The notes below the pieces were generated by a model that made no database searches, was not told the origin of the DNA, and worked only from the letters and a program-made list of their open reading frames with translations. Source: Escherichia coli (lineage in GTDB: Bacteria; Pseudomonadota; Gammaproteobacteria; Enterobacterales; Enterobacteriaceae). From it: 21,251 bases of DNA. Of the stretch, positions 8,497 through 17,115 are shown piece after piece (within the stretch, counting starts at the first letter, position 1; the number at the start of each line of letters is the position of its first letter). Both the position numbers and the translations under genes were made by a program. The DNA lies in NCBI RefSeq assembly GCF_003334255.1, contig NZ_QOWU01000069.1; one strand, 5' to 3'.

Positions 8497-9158
8497 TGAT
8501 CAGGATTAGAGAGGTAAGTCATCACTATTCGCTGGGGCATAGCGCAGTCCCTGCGCTACAGAATATCTCGCTGGATATTGCTGCCGCTGAAATGGTGGCC
8601 ATTACCGGGCCTTCGGGCAGTGGAAAATCTACCTTATTAAATGTACTGGGATGTTTACTGACCCCACATTCGGGGGAGGTCTTTCTGCTGGAGAAGCTGA
8701 CGAATACGCTGAATGATTATCAGAAGTCGTTATTTCGGCGGGATAATATCAGCTTCATTTTTCAGTCGTTTAATCTATTACCGGTGCTATCGGTTGATGA
8801 AAATGTCGAGTATCCGTTGATTCTGCAGGGTGTCAGAAAAGTTGAACGTAAAAAACGTGTCGCAGAGATAGTCAATGATGTCGGTCTGATGGGATTTCGG
8901 CGGCATCGGCCGGACCAGTTATCCGGCGGTCAGCGACAGCGCGTCGCGATTGCCCGGGCGCTCATTACTGACCCGAAGTATGTGCTGGCGGATGAGCCGA
9001 CGGCTAATTTAGACAGTGAAAACAGCAAAATGATACTGAATCTTATTGCCGAGATGAATCACATACGCAAAACCGCATTTATTTTCGCTACCCATGACGC
9101 AAACGTATATAACTTCGCGCATCGTATGATCAATATGACTGACGGGAGAGTCATATGA
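8496..9158 (+). CDS. ABC transporter ATP-binding protein, LolD/MacB-type
   Basis: Walker A GPSGSGKST, ABC signature LSGGQRQRVAIARAL, Walker B VLADEPTANLD; start overlaps the previous stop (TGATG). Confidence 0.9.
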   Translation: MIRIREVSHHYSLGHSAVPALQNISLDIAAAEMVAITGPSGSGKSTLLNVLGCLLTPHSGEVFLLEKLTNTLNDYQKSLFRRDNISFIFQSFNLLPVLSVDENVEYPLILQGVRKVERKKRVAEIVNDVGLMGFRRHRPDQLSGGQRQRVAIARALITDPKYVLADEPTANLDSENSKMILNLIAEMNHIRKTAFIFATHDANVYNFAHRMINMTDGRVI

Positions 9159-10369
9159 CAACGGCATTGTTAGCGTTGCGCAATGTATTCAGAAATAAAC
9201 GCCGAACTTGCATTGTTTTCCTGTCCATCTCGGCAGCGATGAGCGCCATGATTGTGTTTGGCGGCTTTATTAATTACACCTTTGAAGGACTCCGGGAATC
9301 GACGATCAGAACCCAGCTGGGGCACTTTCAGATTGCCCAGCGCGGCTATTTCGAGCAGGGCGCATCGCAGAGCAGAGAGCTGCTCATTTCGTCACCTCAG
9401 CGGCTGGAAACAAAACTGCAAACGGTACCTCATATCAGCACGATCTCCAGAAGGCTTACCGGCTCCGGACTGATTACGGTTGGCCACGCTTCGCTGTCTG
9501 CCAAATTAATCGGTGTCATGCCGGAACGCGATGAGGAATTCTCGAATTATGAAATTGTGGTGGAAGGCAGGCAAATCGAACAGGGCCATGATGATGAGTG
9601 TGTGATTGGCAGCCAGCTGGCAAAAGGTCTCGGGGCGCAGGTGGGTGATACCGCCACCATACTCAGTTCGAGTTATGACGACGCAATCAACGCGGTAGAT
9701 TGTACCATTGTCGGTATCGTACGGACCCCGGCGAAAGAATATGACAAGGTTTATGTAAAAATGAACCTGGCTCATTTGCAGCGATTGCTTGATACCGAAA
9801 AAATTGAATATCTGGTGTTGTTACTGGATGAAACGGAAAACTTATCGATTGTTGCCAGCCAGCTGAGCACGGTAATAAGTGGTGAGTATGAGTACAGAGA
9901 GTGGACGCAGCTGGCAGAGTTTTATCAGGGCGTGGTTAACCTTTATACGTCAATATTCAGGCTTAGTTTCATCGTATTATCAATTATCGTCATTTTAAGT
10001 ATCACCAATACGATGAGCATGTCGGTTTTTGAACGCTTTCGCGAGATTGGCACATTGCGGGCAATGGGACAGACGCGGCTTTCCATCATCGGATTATTTG
10101 TAAGTGAAGGGATCATTATCGGTATCCTGGGCGGCATCATTGGCGTGCTGGCTGGAACAGGGTTTGCCCAGCTGATTAACCTCTCAGGGGGGATCGCGAT
10201 ACCTGCGCCACCGGGCATGTCCAGTGGCTATACTGCACGTATTAATATCGATTTCACTGTTATTTTATACTCTTTTATGATGTCGATGATAACTGCAACG
10301 GTATCTTCATTATATCCGGCCATTATTGCGGCCAGAAAAGATATTGTCGAGGCACTGACCCATATATGA
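9155..10369 (+). CDS. ABC transporter permease, FtsX-like (LolC/E / MacB-family)
   Basis: 404 aa; N-terminal transmembrane segment, large periplasmic domain, then three C-terminal transmembrane segments (LSFIVLSIIVILSI, IIIGILGGIIGVLAG, ILYSFMMSMITATV); ATG overlaps the ATPase stop (ATGA). Confidence 0.85.
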   Translation: MTTALLALRNVFRNKRRTCIVFLSISAAMSAMIVFGGFINYTFEGLRESTIRTQLGHFQIAQRGYFEQGASQSRELLISSPQRLETKLQTVPHISTISRRLTGSGLITVGHASLSAKLIGVMPERDEEFSNYEIVVEGRQIEQGHDDECVIGSQLAKGLGAQVGDTATILSSSYDDAINAVDCTIVGIVRTPAKEYDKVYVKMNLAHLQRLLDTEKIEYLVLLLDETENLSIVASQLSTVISGEYEYREWTQLAEFYQGVVNLYTSIFRLSFIVLSIIVILSITNTMSMSVFERFREIGTLRAMGQTRLSIIGLFVSEGIIIGILGGIIGVLAGTGFAQLINLSGGIAIPAPPGMSSGYTARINIDFTVILYSFMMSMITATVSSLYPAIIAARKDIVEALTHI

Positions 10370-11109
10370 AAAAACTGCTTACCATCTTCTTACTTTTATT
10401 GTTGTTTCCCACAGCATCAGTGACGGCTGAGAGCCCCGAGTTGACTCTTTCACCTGAAAAAATATTGACGCGGGTTGATACTATTCGTGCACCTGGCAGT
10501 GATTTTATTTTCACTGTTACAGCCGATGTAAATAATGGCGAGGTGATGAGTGAATACACCGTGAAAGTTAATAACAGCACGAAAAGTCTGGTGCTGTATA
10601 CCAAACCGGTAAAAAATAAAGGACGGGTAATCCTGTTAGATGACCGCAACATGTGGATATACATACCCGGTACCAGTCGGGCGATGAGAATATCCCCGCA
10701 ACAGCAACTGGTTGGCGCTGCCTCTAATGCCGATATTTCGCGAGTGGTCTTTAATATCGACTATCGTCCGCTATCTGCGGTGACAAAAAAAGAGCACGCT
10801 CGCGAGGTGATTGAGCTGGAGTTGCAGGCCAAAGAAGCCTCTGCGCCCTACAGAAAAGTGGTATTAATCGTCGATAAACACAGCTTTCAGCCGATTAAAG
10901 CAGATTTTTATGCACTGTCGGGGAAAAAATTAAAATCGATAGATTATCTTGAATATGCCCCCGTCCTGGGCGAGGTGCGTCCGGTTAAATTAGTGATTAG
11001 TGACAGTGTTAACACCAGCAAAACGACAACATTGACCTACAGCCATTTTTCACTGGAAAAAACGCCGGAAGCATTCTATCAGCCATCCTATCTTAACCGG
11101 GTAAGATAA
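10366..11109 (+). CDS. LolA-like periplasmic carrier (outer-membrane lipoprotein-sorting-protein family)
   Basis: Signal peptide MKKLLTIFLLLLLFPTASVTA without a lipobox; length and the RVILLDDRNMWIYIPG…RISP pattern match LolA-like proteins found next to ABC/FtsX exporters and in polyene-pigment clusters. Overlaps the permease stop. Confidence 0.5.
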   Translation: MKKLLTIFLLLLLFPTASVTAESPELTLSPEKILTRVDTIRAPGSDFIFTVTADVNNGEVMSEYTVKVNNSTKSLVLYTKPVKNKGRVILLDDRNMWIYIPGTSRAMRISPQQQLVGAASNADISRVVFNIDYRPLSAVTKKEHAREVIELELQAKEASAPYRKVVLIVDKHSFQPIKADFYALSGKKLKSIDYLEYAPVLGEVRPVKLVISDSVNTSKTTTLTYSHFSLEKTPEAFYQPSYLNRVR

Positions 11110-11130
11110 CAGGATAAGTCAGGAGACGTT

Positions 11131-12330
11131 ATGAGGGAGCTTGCTGGCAAACGACCATGGCGCGGATATGGATTATGCCTGCTGACGGCGCTCCCGCTGT
11201 TGGTCAATGCTGAGGGTGCTGATTTTGATTATCAGTTGCAAAGCGATCTGCGCAGCTATGTATATCAGGGAGAAAAATACAGAGATAGCCAGGATTTTAA
11301 TCTGTACTCTGACAATTTCGCGCAGCTCATGGTGAATTTCTTCTCCCGCTATCATTATCAGCGCCTTACGGTGCCCGTAAAAATAAGAGCCAGCGAAAAA
11401 TACTCTTTTGATAAACGTGATGATAAATCCGACCTGATAGTCGATGAGGCCTTTCTCGATTATTCTGCCACTGATACGCTTATTTTCAACCTTGGACGTA
11501 AACAGTTGGTTAATGGGGTGGCGATGGGAAATAACCCCACCGACTTTCTCAATGCTAATAAGTATCAGGATCGGCATCTGTCAGACCAGCAGCGCCGATC
11601 TGAGATAAAGGGGGATGATGTGGTTGGGGTCGTGAATTATTTTGCCTCATCATCTGTACAGTTTTACTATTTGCCGTCAGAAAATGCCAGCTGGCTCCAG
11701 TACGCCTGGAATATTCCATCAATGAATACCGATACCGGATTTTCCTGGTACCACGATGATATCAATGCTGTCGGTATCAACATCTCAACGACGTTTACGG
11801 ATAAGATTACGGGCTATATCGAGAATTCACTGTCTGATAAAAGAAACCGTTCGGTTATCGATGCGCAGGGGAATCTGCACAGTGAATCGGGTTTGTTTAC
11901 CGATCTGGTGCTGGGCTCACAATATACCTTTGATAACGGCATTAATATCAACGCAGAATACTGGTATAACCAACACGGCTATAGCAAAGAGGAGTATGAC
12001 GATATCTCTGCCGCTGTGGCTACGGGTAAAATAAAATACACTGATGCTTCCCGCTCTTTAAGTATGCGTAATCGGTATAAAAATAAACTGTTTTTTCGGC
12101 TGAGCGATATTCCGGTTAATGAAGATATCAGGCTGGAGCAGACCTTTATTCAGAGTTTAACGGATAATGGCTACTTTCTGCGGAGTACGGTTATTGGCCA
12201 GCTGTCGGATAATTCAACATTGCGTGTCAGCATGGAATTCTATCAGGGCAATGCGCAGAGCGAGTATGGTGGTAACCCAATCAATTACGGCGTGTTTTTG
12301 TCCTGGCAATATTTCTTGGAGAGTAACTGA
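11131..12330 (+). CDS. Putative outer-membrane (beta-rich) protein of unknown function
   Basis: AGGAG ribosome-binding site; signal peptide ending LLVNA-EGAD; composition rich in Y/N/S/T/G with alternating hydrophobic patterns; aromatic-rich C-terminal region (GVFLSWQYF). Confidence 0.45.
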   Translation: MRELAGKRPWRGYGLCLLTALPLLVNAEGADFDYQLQSDLRSYVYQGEKYRDSQDFNLYSDNFAQLMVNFFSRYHYQRLTVPVKIRASEKYSFDKRDDKSDLIVDEAFLDYSATDTLIFNLGRKQLVNGVAMGNNPTDFLNANKYQDRHLSDQQRRSEIKGDDVVGVVNYFASSSVQFYYLPSENASWLQYAWNIPSMNTDTGFSWYHDDINAVGINISTTFTDKITGYIENSLSDKRNRSVIDAQGNLHSESGLFTDLVLGSQYTFDNGININAEYWYNQHGYSKEEYDDISAAVATGKIKYTDASRSLSMRNRYKNKLFFRLSDIPVNEDIRLEQTFIQSLTDNGYFLRSTVIGQLSDNSTLRVSMEFYQGNAQSEYGGNPINYGVFLSWQYFLESN

Positions 12331-12332
12331 TT

Positions 12333-13166
12333 ATGGCATTTGCTTCGCATAACCCACAGCGTTATGACATTGGTGAGGATTGTTTCGCCCTTTATCATTC
12401 GGAATCACACAGTTTTGAGGTATTTCTTGGCAGTGAACGCGTGCCTTTCTTCTCAGCAGAAGTGGTAGATAAAATGCTCGGCGGCATGACAAAGATAGCG
12501 CATGGCGAGCTGGACTGTTCATCCGCACTCCATTTCTTTGTGTTGCGTTCCGCTTTCCCCGGTATTTTTAATCTTGGTGCCGATCTTGATCTGTTTCACT
12601 CGTTAGCCGCGGAGAAAAACAGAGATGAACTTCGTCTCTATGCTGACAAGTGCGTTGACCTTATCCATCACCTTTCTCACGGCATCAACAATGCGATAAC
12701 GACCGTGGCGCTGGTAGAAGGAAAATGTTTTGGCGGCGGCTTTGAGGCGGTACTGGCCTGCGATTACCTGATTGCCAGTGAGTCCGCTTTATTCTCGTTC
12801 CCCGAAATCAAGCTGGGTATTTTTCCCGGTATGGGAGCCGCGTCGGTTATGTCGCGGGTACTGAATAAAGGGGATTACCAGCGAATTTTCCTTTCGGGTG
12901 AGATGTTTTCCGCGCAGCAGCTCTTTGATATGGGCCTGGTGAGCCAGCTGGTTCCCGACGGGCAGGGAGAGGCGGTATTAAGGCAGTTCCTGAAGCGTAT
13001 GAATAGCGCCGCGTGTTATCAGTTATCCGCTATTTATAAATACAATAAGCGGCTACCAGTGTCGGAGCTGCGCTTTTTTGCTGAGCAGTGGGTAGAGGGG
13101 GTAATGGATTTAACCCGGCGGCAACTCGCGCTGATTGCTTATGCGGCAACGCAACAGAGAGAATAA
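12333..13166 (+). CDS. Enoyl-CoA hydratase/isomerase (crotonase-family) protein
   Basis: Crotonase core GKCFGGGFEAVLACDYLIASESALFSFPEIKLGIFPGMGA; starts 2 bp after the previous stop. Confidence 0.85.
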   Translation: MAFASHNPQRYDIGEDCFALYHSESHSFEVFLGSERVPFFSAEVVDKMLGGMTKIAHGELDCSSALHFFVLRSAFPGIFNLGADLDLFHSLAAEKNRDELRLYADKCVDLIHHLSHGINNAITTVALVEGKCFGGGFEAVLACDYLIASESALFSFPEIKLGIFPGMGAASVMSRVLNKGDYQRIFLSGEMFSAQQLFDMGLVSQLVPDGQGEAVLRQFLKRMNSAACYQLSAIYKYNKRLPVSELRFFAEQWVEGVMDLTRRQLALIAYAATQQRE

Positions 13167-15272: not shown

Positions 15273-15900
15273 AAGATACTGGACCATGCTGGCCGACCAG
15301 AACAGGATAAAGCCAGCATCGACACACTGACTCGCTATGCCCATGCGTGCAGTATCAAAAAACTGTATCACTGGTATAATCTGGTAAAGAGCATATTGAG
15401 AACTTATCATGTCGTCACGCAACTCTATACATGATTTTATAATGCTGCTCCCGGCGCTGCTGTTAGTTGGGTGGTTAGTTTTGGTGATAATTCTCATGTT
15501 TAGGGATGATAAATGTGACAAAACTTACCGTGAAGGTTCGTTTCCCGAATTTATTTGTCTCCATTCTGATCGCTCGTCACTTCGAGAAACCGATTCTGAG
15601 AGACTCATTGTCAAATATACAGAAATACAATCACGAAAATAGGTAAAACCAATAATACTATAGCTAAAAAAATAGTTACTTTTCTGTATCACCCTGTCTC
15701 TCTCTGCTTTTTCATGGCTACTGTCATATTTATGTCTGTTGCGCGGTTTTATCTGTGTATATAAAATACATCTGTATTCATTGTTATCTGAAAATTTGCG
15801 TATGCTGATAAAAAATCCGATTTCTTATTTCCATATTGGCACATTTTTATTATCAGGAAAAAAACGTCATCTTCTGGAATACTGGAAAGCAGAAGTTATC

Positions 15901-16398
15901 ATGCGGGATAAGTTTGTTTTTCACCGGCTTATCAGGAACGGTATGCAGAGGCAGAGAGGTTTTCTTCTGTGGTGGCGTCTGGCCAATGAGATGTTTATCT
16001 CCGGAAACAAAAAACAAAGGAAATGTGCGATAAAGATAAAAAATGCACTCATGGAACGGTATGGATGTGATATCGGCCTGGGCGCGCGGATTGGTAAAGG
16101 CCTCGTGTTGCCTCACCATGCAGGTATCGTCATTCATGGTAATGTTGATATCGGTGAGAATGTCATTATACGGCAGAATACAACCATTGGTGAGAAGGTT
16201 TCTGACAGCAGGGATAACTATATTGTTATTGGCGATAATGTCGATATTGGTGCCCATACATGTATTATTGGGTTAAATGTGAAAATCGGAAGTAATGTTA
16301 AAATCGGGGCAATGTCTTTTATTATGGATGATGTGCCTGATAACTGTACTTATGTCACCAGGAAGGAATCCAGAGTAATAATTCGTGAACAGTCATGA
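15901..16398 (+). CDS. Hexapeptide-repeat O-acetyltransferase (serine acetyltransferase / WcaB-like)
   Basis: Left-handed beta-helix repeats GIVIHGNVDIGENVIIRQNTTIGEK…IVIGDNVDIGAHTCIIGLNVKIGSNVKIGAMSFIMDDVPDN; ATG at 15901 gives the ~165 aa length typical of WcaB-like proteins; the ORF-track start at 15739 is probably an extension. Confidence 0.7.
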   Translation: MRDKFVFHRLIRNGMQRQRGFLLWWRLANEMFISGNKKQRKCAIKIKNALMERYGCDIGLGARIGKGLVLPHHAGIVIHGNVDIGENVIIRQNTTIGEKVSDSRDNYIVIGDNVDIGAHTCIIGLNVKIGSNVKIGAMSFIMDDVPDNCTYVTRKESRVIIREQS

Positions 16399-16497
16399 AA
16401 TAAATATCATCATTATTCTGTTGGTGACTTTGCTGACTGAGATATATACTATCTGTATGTCGTGAATTACATATTAACGATACGCAGAGGTGTGTAT

Positions 16498-17115
16498 ATG
16501 GGCAGTGTCACAAAGAAACCGTCACCTGTTGTTATTATTAAGAAAAAAAGACGAATTCTTTCTCACCAGGATGATGCCGTACAGGCTGTTCCTGATGATA
16601 TAAAACCAGCGCCAGTAATGGAATTTAAAACTGACTCATTACCTCCGGATATACCAGCCACAGTGGTCGGTTCCCCGGAACAACAGAAAAAAACAGGACG
16701 TAAGAAGAAGAAAAAAAAGAAGAACAATGGATGGAGTCATGAATTTATCCGACACAGTCTGGACTGTGTTAAAAAAATATTCCCTCAGTTACGGGCTGAA
16801 GAGGGGGGATATCATGCATTTAAAATTGGCATATCAAAGGATGTCATGGCTTTTATTTCGTCCAGTCCAGAGTGTGGGCTCACAGTAAAAGAATGGGACT
16901 GTGCTGTAAGAATGATTACTGGCGGTTACAAATATCTGCAGCGTATATCAGTCGCAGGTACGCCGCGTTATGGTCTGGATGGCAAAGTTCATGGAACTGT
17001 AACGGAAGAAGAAGCGCAGCATGCGCAGGCAAAACTTGAAAAACACACGCAGCGTTATAACGCCAGGATGAAAGAGACAGAGGATGCTCGCCGCAATCAA
17101 CCATCGACAGACTGA
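16498..17115 (+). CDS. ProQ/FinO-family RNA-binding protein
   Basis: Central domain …IFPQLRAEEGGYHAFKIGISKDVMAF…GGYKYLQRISVAGTPRYGLDGKVHGTVTEEEAQHAQAKLEK has the FinO/ProQ pattern (FP..F, KIGI, YL, RYDL-EG, EE…A). Lys-rich N-terminal segment KKTGRKKKKKKKNN. ATG at 16498 preceded by GAGG. Confidence 0.75.
   Translation: MGSVTKKPSPVVIIKKKRRILSHQDDAVQAVPDDIKPAPVMEFKTDSLPPDIPATVVGSPEQQKKTGRKKKKKKKNNGWSHEFIRHSLDCVKKIFPQLRAEEGGYHAFKIGISKDVMAFISSSPECGLTVKEWDCAVRMITGGYKYLQRISVAGTPRYGLDGKVHGTVTEEEAQHAQAKLEKHTQRYNARMKETEDARRNQPSTD

Follow-up and report, generated by a model that had tools for sequence, protein, structure and literature searches.

The FinO-type copy-number repressors closest to the gene analysed here are FopA, of IncI1/I-gamma plasmids, and PcnR, of IncI2 plasmids. 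FopA binds and protects the Inc antisense RNA and accelerates the pairing of Inc with repZ; its hallmark is the presence of two positively charged stretches in the N-terminal region, and the RNA-binding tyrosine and arginine are Y146 and R157 in FopA and Y70 and R80 in ProQ (PMC7491321). The type of ligand recognised by FinO domains is a terminator-like hairpin (PMC9977716), and some chromosomal RNAs are among the ligands of FopA too (PMC7491321, PMC9977716). PcnR represses repA via the repR leader and its deletion results in an approximately 10-fold higher copy number; putative ProQ/FinO proteins have also been noted on IncI1 and IncB/O plasmids (PMC8053102). Both the FopA and the PcnR genes are located near their own replicons.

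Here we describe a gene for a 205-aa protein found in a stretch of 21,251 nucleotides from Escherichia coli, which we call the window (Table 1). The whole window aligns without gaps to positions 9909-31159 of the E. coli G8 plasmid NZ_CP060058.1 with 99.976% identity, and the same coding sequence was annotated there by PGAP as ProQ/FINO family protein (WP_016232781.1). Regarding the start codon, we took the ATG at 16498 and not the upstream GTG at 16462, because the protein N-terminus MGSVTKKPSPVVIIKKKRR aligns with MGKNQEERKTPVIVVKKRR of FopA. The dN/dS between lineages was 0.10-0.22 for the gene, 0.09-0.16 for the FinO domain and 0.13-0.27 for the N-terminal region. Thus both the N-terminal region and the domain are under purifying selection (dN/dS 0.09-0.27).

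Table 1. Features of the locus, with positions in the window
Feature	Positions	Strand	Basis or remark
Hexapeptide-repeat (serine acetyltransferase-like) gene	15802..16398	+	NCBIfam EpsC/CysE-like, below cut-offs
GAGG ribosome-binding site	16487..16490	+	7 nt upstream of ATG; read directly from sequence
CDS for 205-aa FopA/PcnR-clade FinO-domain protein	16498..17115	+	ORF; ATG 16498, TGA 17113-17115
First basic stretch and conserved N-terminal motif (S9-R19, SPVVIIKKKRR)	16522..16554	+	Contains A7 run 16543-16549
Second basic stretch KKTGRKKKKKKK (K64-K75)	16687..16722	+	A7 run 16687-16693 and A8 run 16711-16718 inside
In-phase A_AAA_AAG heptamer	16713..16719	+	Phase check; -1 frame stop TGA 16739-16741
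FinO/ProQ domain fold, predicted, residues 81-199	16738..17094	+	AlphaFold2, Foldseek; Pfam match residues 87-192
Fourth A run (A7, K92-K93)	16771..16777	+	Frameshift-allele site in relatives
Conserved 95-aa ORF, usual downstream neighbour	17140..17427	+	Annotated in NZ_CP060058.1

A preliminary description, made from the letters of the window, had recognised a FinO/ProQ core in this protein, and this was borne out by the profile search, the PDB search and the predicted fold. The profile search recovered the Pfam ProQ domain (PF04352, E=3.8e-14, 53 bits), which covered model positions 7-108 of 109 and is also precomputed for an identical database protein (P0001). With phmmer against the PDB, the best sequence match was the N-terminal domain of ProQ (5nb9, E=2e-7), and RocC was matched too. 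The AlphaFold2 model, built on 40 homologues, had a pLDDT above 93 over residues 81-199, with predicted helices at residues 81-94, 112-122, 130-141, 144-150 and 170-199 and strands at 156-158 and 164-167, that is, the helical bowl with a two-stranded beta-hairpin of the FinO-domain fold. The best PDB match of this model in Foldseek was RocC in a terminator-bound structure (7rgt, TM 0.86, rmsd 2.2 A), the other matches being FinO (1dvo, rmsd 2.1 A over 105 residues), Lpp1663 and NMB1681. Disorder is predicted for residues 1-78, in which the lysine tract lies, and at the other end the modelled protein finishes with the helix (residues 199-205) and has no additional domain. Y146 and R157 are invariant in the alignment and match WRYL and TRVDLDG of ProQ.

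Regarding the placement within the family, only 31 proteins reached E<=1e-10 in an exhaustive search of 1.84 billion representative proteins and therefore the clade is small. The FopA and PcnR-like relatives were reached through this exhaustive search, the word-indexed protein search giving near-identical clusters only. FopA of pCol1B9 was 37% identical over 199 aa (E=3e-37), the IncI2 PcnR-like protein was 29% identical (E=9e-28), and these two were 36% identical to each other; therefore, the three proteins represent roughly equidistant branches. The homology extends over the full length and includes the N-terminal region with its two basic stretches. Actually, all three branches have in common the motif PV[VI][IV][IV]KK[KR]R and a second basic stretch just ahead of the domain. 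P10, V11, K15, K16 and R18 are invariant among this protein, FopA/YafB and the PcnR-like protein, and the N-terminal motif was also found in five other homologues (P0009, P0010, P0022, P0024 and P0032). The second basic stretch, predicted to be disordered and immediately ahead of helix 1, aligns with RKKKKKRHR of FopA. The N-terminal region had been regarded as distinctive, but FopA had already been published with two such stretches as its hallmark (PMC7491321), and those found here align with those of FopA, the PcnR-like protein and other clade members. The NCBIfam models for the FinO subfamily (NF010317, 32.5 bits vs a cut-off of 136) and for the ProQ equivalog (NF003434, 41.3 bits vs a cut-off of 127) stayed far under their cut-offs, which means that the protein is neither FinO proper nor ProQ. 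Within the FinO/ProQ family, the gene product is best placed on the FopA/PcnR branch, as an RNA-binding protein encoded by a plasmid. It is a known kind of gene, already annotated, on a plasmid backbone; in the accessible literature we found no earlier characterisation of a subfamily associated with IncZ/IncK2- and IncFII-type replicons.

The gene had also been described as borne by an island on mobile DNA, with no tra genes in sight. The DNA is indeed mobile, but it is the backbone of a plasmid, as the alignment with NZ_CP060058.1 shows, and 126 of the 132 matching PLSDB plasmids are typed as conjugative; the impression of an island without tra genes was due to the boundaries of the window and to the deletions of this particular plasmid. 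NZ_CP060058.1 is a 99.8 kb plasmid typed as IncK2/Z with a MOBP relaxase, and its transfer genes are I-type remnants only, not F-type. Among 5,426 complete E. coli genomes the gene was present in 142, with 148 matches, all of them on plasmids and none on a chromosome.

The surroundings of the gene are conserved. In seven relatives with 93-99% protein identity (L003, L006, L008, L010, L011, L012 and L013) repA is followed in turn by a short ORF, a Phd/RelE-type toxin-antitoxin pair, the hexapeptide acetyltransferase gene, the FinO-like gene and an ORF of 95-104 aa, so that the acetyltransferase gene lies upstream of the FinO-like gene in all seven, and the latter starts around 2.3 kb past the repA stop. 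The 95-aa ORF was kept in 10 of the 12 fetched relatives and was missing in L006 and L012, in which the region is truncated or interrupted; it matched nothing in Pfam or NCBIfam and did not resemble YafA of IncI plasmids. Even a homologue that is 50% identical and comes from an unrelated assembly (P0009) lies in the order IncFII_repA, ParE-type toxin-antitoxin pair and ProQ-domain gene, without the acetyltransferase. In NZ_CP060058.1, repA is located at record positions 1-873, about 25 kb from the FinO-like gene and outside the window. The stretch from repA to the acetyltransferase/FinO module is occupied by IS110 and IS66 elements, a transposon of the Tn3 family and a cluster of cargo genes (ACP, ketosynthase and ABC-transporter genes) that measures about 12 kb. 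These transposon and cargo insertions parted the gene from repA, although both are still on one molecule. The gene is part of a replicon-adjacent module and not of a cargo island.

The replicon itself is under antisense-RNA control. Directly upstream of repA in the host plasmid we found a full-length Rfam PK-repZ match (162.5 bits). In the alignment of the leaders, the Inc hairpin differs from pCol1B9 Inc, the main ligand of FopA, in the loop alone, the stem and the U-rich 3' tail being identical. The antisense RNA lies at record positions of about 99,650-99,750 on the minus strand, and this strand folds into a hairpin that resembles a terminator and is stable (-41 kcal/mol, z=-6.6). The host RepA shares 86% identity with an IncFII RepA, and BLAST gave no match with RepZ. 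A PK-repZ control region together with a FII-like RepA makes this replicon an IncZ-type combination, with the control region of the I-complex and an FII-like initiator. Among the relatives, L006 carries a true IncFII CopA instead (85.5 bits) and L012 carries a 340-aa I-complex RepA. The gene is thus located on a plasmid with a repA/repZ replicon controlled by an antisense RNA, as expected for the FopA/PcnR clade, here with the insertion gap of about 25 kb.

In our opinion the protein most likely works as an RNA chaperone by which plasmid replication is repressed and the copy number controlled, a reading by analogy with FopA and PcnR to which we give a probability of roughly 0.6. The FinO domain with its conserved Tyr146 and Arg157, the similarity to FopA and PcnR, the exclusive location on plasmids, the synteny with repA, the Inc hairpin, the purifying selection and the truncated repA next to the most decayed copies all support it; what we established directly is the domain, the clade, the synteny and that a suitable ligand is present, and RNA binding and repression are what we infer from them. 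The FinO domain, preceded by the presumably disordered basic N-terminal region (PVVIIKKKRR ... KKTGRKKKKKKK-NNGW), would grip a hairpin that resembles a terminator and ends in a free 3' tail, by analogy with the solved structures of the FinO family. The RNA bound might be the Inc/RNAI-type antisense RNA of the plasmid replicon, the repA leader, or both. By protecting the antisense RNA and speeding up its pairing with the leader, the protein would cause less RepA to be translated and the copy number would stay low, which is how FopA was shown to act on IncI plasmids and, in a variant form, PcnR on IncI2 plasmids; the lysine tract may be part of the RNA-contacting or chaperone region.

Some points go against this reading. 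The putative target comes only from 29-37% identity and from synteny, and in this plasmid the replicon is outside the window, about 25 kb away. The exact mode of action cannot be read from homology, because the mechanisms of FopA and PcnR differ. Furthermore, three replicon flavours were found beside the module (the IncZ-type hybrid, a true IncFII with CopA and the 340-aa I-complex RepA), which makes one co-evolved RNA partner hard to point to. The large IncF plasmids that form the commonest lineage have an intact gene although an IS1 separates it from any adjacent repA, and therefore the protein may serve, or also serve, other RNAs. The I-complex plasmid pMS7163B was also considered, as the subject of a TraDIS study (PMC10286972), but this study gives no direct evidence here because the plasmid carries a FopA-type gene, beside yagA, and not a member of this subfamily.

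The alternative that survives best, although we regard it as unlikely, is an RNA chaperone that works like a small-scale ProQ and mainly binds RNAs outside replication control. Its possible ligands are antisense RNAs of type I toxin-antitoxin systems, cargo mRNAs and host small RNAs. ProQ prefers structured antisense RNAs, and the host plasmid encodes sok, three AgrB-like antisense RNAs and isrC, which would be speculative ligands. That FopA likewise binds some chromosomal RNAs (PMC7491321, PMC9977716) is in line with this alternative, and so is the persistence of the gene: 110 of the 113 commonest-allele records have it intact, and in two fetched members of that lineage (L004 and L009) an IS1 separates it from any adjacent repA. 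Nevertheless, the position near the replicon is kept down to 50% identity and is common to FopA and PcnR, the Inc hairpin is present with the same stem and tail as the ligand of FopA, and the decay of the gene goes together with the decay of the adjacent replicon, the most decayed copies (pO145/pO157-like lineage) being next to a truncated repA.

A role in conjugation had also been suggested, on the grounds that FinO-domain proteins on mobile DNA often control it. A FinO-type fertility inhibitor acting through an antisense RNA of the transfer regulon would have the same domain, the predicted fold does match FinO (1dvo), and the deletion of PcnR modestly raised the transfer frequency of its IncI2 plasmid (PMC8053102). 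However, the score of the NCBIfam FinO model stayed at 32.5 bits, the N-terminal region is unlike that of FinO (PMC7491321), and no FinP RNA was matched at the Rfam gathering threshold in a scan of essentially the whole host plasmid. The host transfer genes, moreover, are I-type remnants instead of F-type genes, and the gene adjoins a replicon and lies outside any tra operon. We therefore consider a fertility inhibitor very improbable, and replication control is better supported than conjugation control.

Regarding the lysine tract, the preliminary description had placed an A8 run at 16711-16718 within a stretch of seven lysines, and the position was exact: K69-K75 and N76 are encoded by AAG AAG AAG AAA AAA AAG AAG AAC. 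It was proposed that slippage there could make the expression phase-variable. Three A7 runs lie elsewhere in the gene (Table 1). A single A8 run is within chance expectation, since around 0.4 runs of this length per base type are expected in the window, where a second A8 occurs at 4926. In the 618 bp of the gene there are 4 A runs of at least 7, compared with a mean of 3.3 after shuffling the lysine codons; their clustering is due to the 26 lysine codons and their preference for AAA. Within the tract the rarer codon AAG is enriched (5/7 vs 3/19 in the rest of the gene, Fisher p=0.014), and these AAG codons interrupt the A run and shorten it. The longest run, of 8, is below the median of 11 of the lysine-codon shuffles, a difference that is not significant (P=0.17). 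Selection against long A runs is thus a trend only, with p=0.014 in the codon test and P=0.17 in the shuffle test. Most likely, the A8 run arose as a side effect of lysine codons and is no programmed switch.

The variation of the tract was surveyed in an alignment of 12 fetched relatives (13 sequences) and in two allele-specific megablast censuses. In the commonest allele the tract was A8 in 110 of 113 records, A7 in 3 and A9 in none, and the three isolated A7 records may be sequencing errors. Around 4 of 60 evenly spaced sampled records had a net frameshift, and three of these came from one decayed lineage with a truncated repA. Among the 13 aligned sequences, the indels of the coding region were found mainly within A runs. 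Three plasmids, two of them pO145 and the third from the commonest lineage, had A7 in place of the A8 run, and pUTME-3-pO157 had A6; in the pO145 lineage the first run was A8 in place of A7 (+1) and the fourth run was A6 (-1); the pECOED-type alleles have lost one in-frame AAG codon, and the frameshift product P0005 diverges at the fourth run. The pO145/pO157-like copies have three or four frameshifts each and lie beside a truncated repA and a frameshifted antitoxin, which points to the decay of a dead replicon module and not to switching. Sequencing error as the sole source of the frameshifts was rejected as well: the changes of the pO145 lineage are real, because they are common to at least 4 independent assemblies and are accompanied by the truncated repA and the frameshifted antitoxin.

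That the gene is a contingency locus, toggled by slippage at the A8 and the three A7 runs, is therefore difficult to believe. It is true that frameshift alleles exist and map to the A runs, that truncated products (P0005, P0006 and P0008) are present in public assemblies, and that the neighbouring acetyltransferase gene had no indels in 11 relatives. However, the alignment and both censuses showed a nearly invariant tract, which the preliminary description had itself named as a refutation, some of the single-base differences may be homopolymer sequencing errors, and the net-frameshifted records came mostly from the decayed lineage. Only loss alleles were found and no balanced on/off polymorphism was seen, the tract is enriched in the rarer AAG, and the run is, if anything, shorter than in the shuffles. 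For these reasons we rejected phase variation; the A runs are mutational weak points, for which the role of a switch is not demonstrated. Just as doubtful is a variant in which the four A runs (A7, A7, A8 and A7) act as a bet-hedging switch of copy number, where slippage would inactivate and restore the putative repressor and produce minority high-copy variants, and low-level -1 frameshifting could add a truncated basic peptide. If it were true, the high-copy variants could be selected whenever a higher dosage of the plasmid cargo was useful.

The heptamer A_AAA_AAG is intrinsically shifty in E. coli, as known from dnaX and IS elements, and we take the one at 16713-16719 to be a -1 slippery sequence of the dnaX type. 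That programmed -1 ribosomal frameshifting or transcriptional slippage at this heptamer yields a basic peptide of 80 aa from the N-terminus that lacks the FinO domain is the weakest alternative and hardly credible: the heptamer is in phase and of a kind known to be shifty in E. coli, with an AGGA 13 nt upstream, two adjoining hairpins at 16729-16770 (from 9 nt downstream, z=-2.65) and a stop in the -1 frame after 7 codons, but it is not conserved, as P0009, the closest distinct homologue, has A_AAA_AAC and FopA has G_AAA_AAG, the first hairpin, already weak, is without its closing G-C pair in the commonest allele, covariation was not seen, and KK dipeptides encoded by AAA-AAG yield such heptamers by chance, one occurring elsewhere in the PcnR-like gene. 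A conserved programmed frameshift was thus rejected from the phase and conservation of the heptamer in the FopA, PcnR-like and P0009 genes and from the folding of the downstream RNA, and the eye-catching A run apparently has no regulatory role.

Should the repression of replication be the true function, this subfamily would be a third branch of FinO-type copy-number repressors after FopA and PcnR, one that serves IncZ/IncK2 and IncFII-type replicons, which are common on virulence and resistance plasmids of E. coli. This would be useful yet incremental for plasmid biology, with no new kind of mechanism. It would also provide a natural test of one FinO domain facing different antisense RNAs, of the Inc type and of the CopA type.

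Finally, the protein can be compared with the known members of the family. It is most like FopA (YafB) of the IncI plasmid pCol1B9 in Salmonella SL1344 (PMC7491321). Both are proteins of around 200 aa encoded by a plasmid near its replicon, both have a disordered N-terminus with two basic stretches ahead of the FinO domain, Tyr146 and Arg157 occupy the same positions in the two, and the Inc hairpin of the host replicon has the same stem and 3' tail. Nevertheless, the identity is only 37% and the linker and the C-terminal tail are unrelated; the neighbours here are the acetyltransferase gene and the 95-aa ORF, whereas those of FopA are yagA and yafA, and the RepA here is of the IncZ/IncFII type, whereas FopA accompanies RepZ.

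PcnR of the IncI2 mcr-1 plasmids (PMC8053102) is also a FinO-domain protein with the conserved N-terminal motif (PVIVVKKRR in PcnR), it is encoded around 2 kb downstream of repA, and it is a copy-number repressor. The identity is lower in this case (29%), the second basic stretch of PcnR is weaker, and PcnR acts by binding directly to the stem-loop of the repR leader and not via an antisense RNA. FinO of F-like plasmids (1dvo) has the same domain fold and is likewise encoded by a plasmid, as the chaperone of a sense-antisense RNA pair, but the protein described here is far below the cut-off of the NCBIfam FinO model, has a different N-terminal region and is found on a plasmid from which FinP/traJ are absent. 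The chromosomal ProQ and RocC of Legionella share the FinO domain, ProQ being the best sequence match in the PDB and RocC the best fold match; unlike ProQ, however, our protein is without the ProQ C-terminal domain, scores 41.3 bits vs 127 with the ProQ model, and among 5,426 E. coli genomes is encoded by plasmids only.

In the EHEC virulence plasmids pO145-13516, pO145-12761 and pUTME-3-pO157 (L002, L005 and L007 among the fetched relatives) the FinO module is a decaying remnant throughout. These plasmids have a truncated repA and a frameshifted antitoxin, and their FinO-like gene has 3-4 frameshifts, every one of them in A runs.

The FinO-like gene also varies at its 3'-end. Most relatives (L003, L004, L008, L011 and L013 among them) have 82 extra bp beyond the end of the window allele (~17108-17115), so that their FinO-like proteins are 217-221 aa long. 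Furthermore, a single-C deletion near the 3'-end of the gene gives rise to two alternative C-terminal tails, ...STNCHTGQQFEGRLHS and ...SKTVTPDSNLKDACIHNGA. The C-terminal tail therefore looks dispensable. The 95-aa ORF that follows is likewise variable at its 3'-end, in this case through a G5/G6 run (~17418-17422) in the same alignment; it had no match in the Pfam or NCBIfam profile searches and is unrelated to YafA.

Regarding the interior of the FinO-like gene, a perfect 8-bp hairpin with a 4-nt loop (GACACAGU/ACUGUGUU) lies immediately 5' of the fourth A run. It was identical in the 13 sequences aligned, all of them, and therefore covariation says nothing for or against it.

Features located in the window and in the host plasmid NZ_CP060058.1 (L017 and L018 are handles for its sequence)
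Feature	Position	Strand	Remarks
Group II intron domain match (Rfam RF00029)	window 691-767	-	41.8 bits, barely over gathering score
Co-oriented cargo cluster	window ~1964-13166	+	about 11-12 kb
8-bp hairpin	window 16751-16770	+	within coding region
Conserved 95-aa ORF	window 17140-17427	+	after FinO-like gene in 10 of 12 fetched relatives
Resolvase C-terminal fragment	window 17620-17895		
yacA/yacB, RelB/RelE-type toxin-antitoxin pair	window 18004-18551	+	
Tn3-family transposase fragment	window 19532-20896	-	
repA of host plasmid	L017 1-873		
PK-repZ/Inc control region	L018 2657-2806		162.5 bits

Besides the resolvase and transposase fragments, there is a 238-bp segment (18743-18980), possibly left over from a transposon or res site. 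The host plasmid has an inverted copy of it with 91.6% identity some 8 kb further downstream (L001 30800-31037). The intron domain match adjoins IS66-family genes.

The cargo cluster is inserted in the host plasmid between repA and the FinO module. Its genes encode an SDR oxidoreductase, an acyl carrier protein, a ketosynthase-like protein, a PfkB kinase, an ABC transporter ATPase, an FtsX-like permease, a LolA-like lipoprotein-sorting protein and a crotonase.

Outside the window, the replicon of the host plasmid is a hybrid of the IncK2/Z type, in which an I-complex PK-repZ/Inc control region is fused to an IncFII-like RepA. This RepA is 86% identical to an IncFII RepA, and BLAST gave no match between it and RepZ. 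The toxin of the yacA/yacB pair (WP_001384452.1) is the same protein as the toxin encoded just 3' of repZ in pCol1B9. Finally, the I-complex backbones of pMS7163B (L023) and L011 share ParA/umuDC/DinI genes; the former carries a FopA-type gene (7188-7790) adjoining yagA and the latter a gene of the window's FinO-like subfamily (3161-3826) adjoining the acetyltransferase. Therefore, the two FinO-like types look interchangeable between related I-complex backbones.
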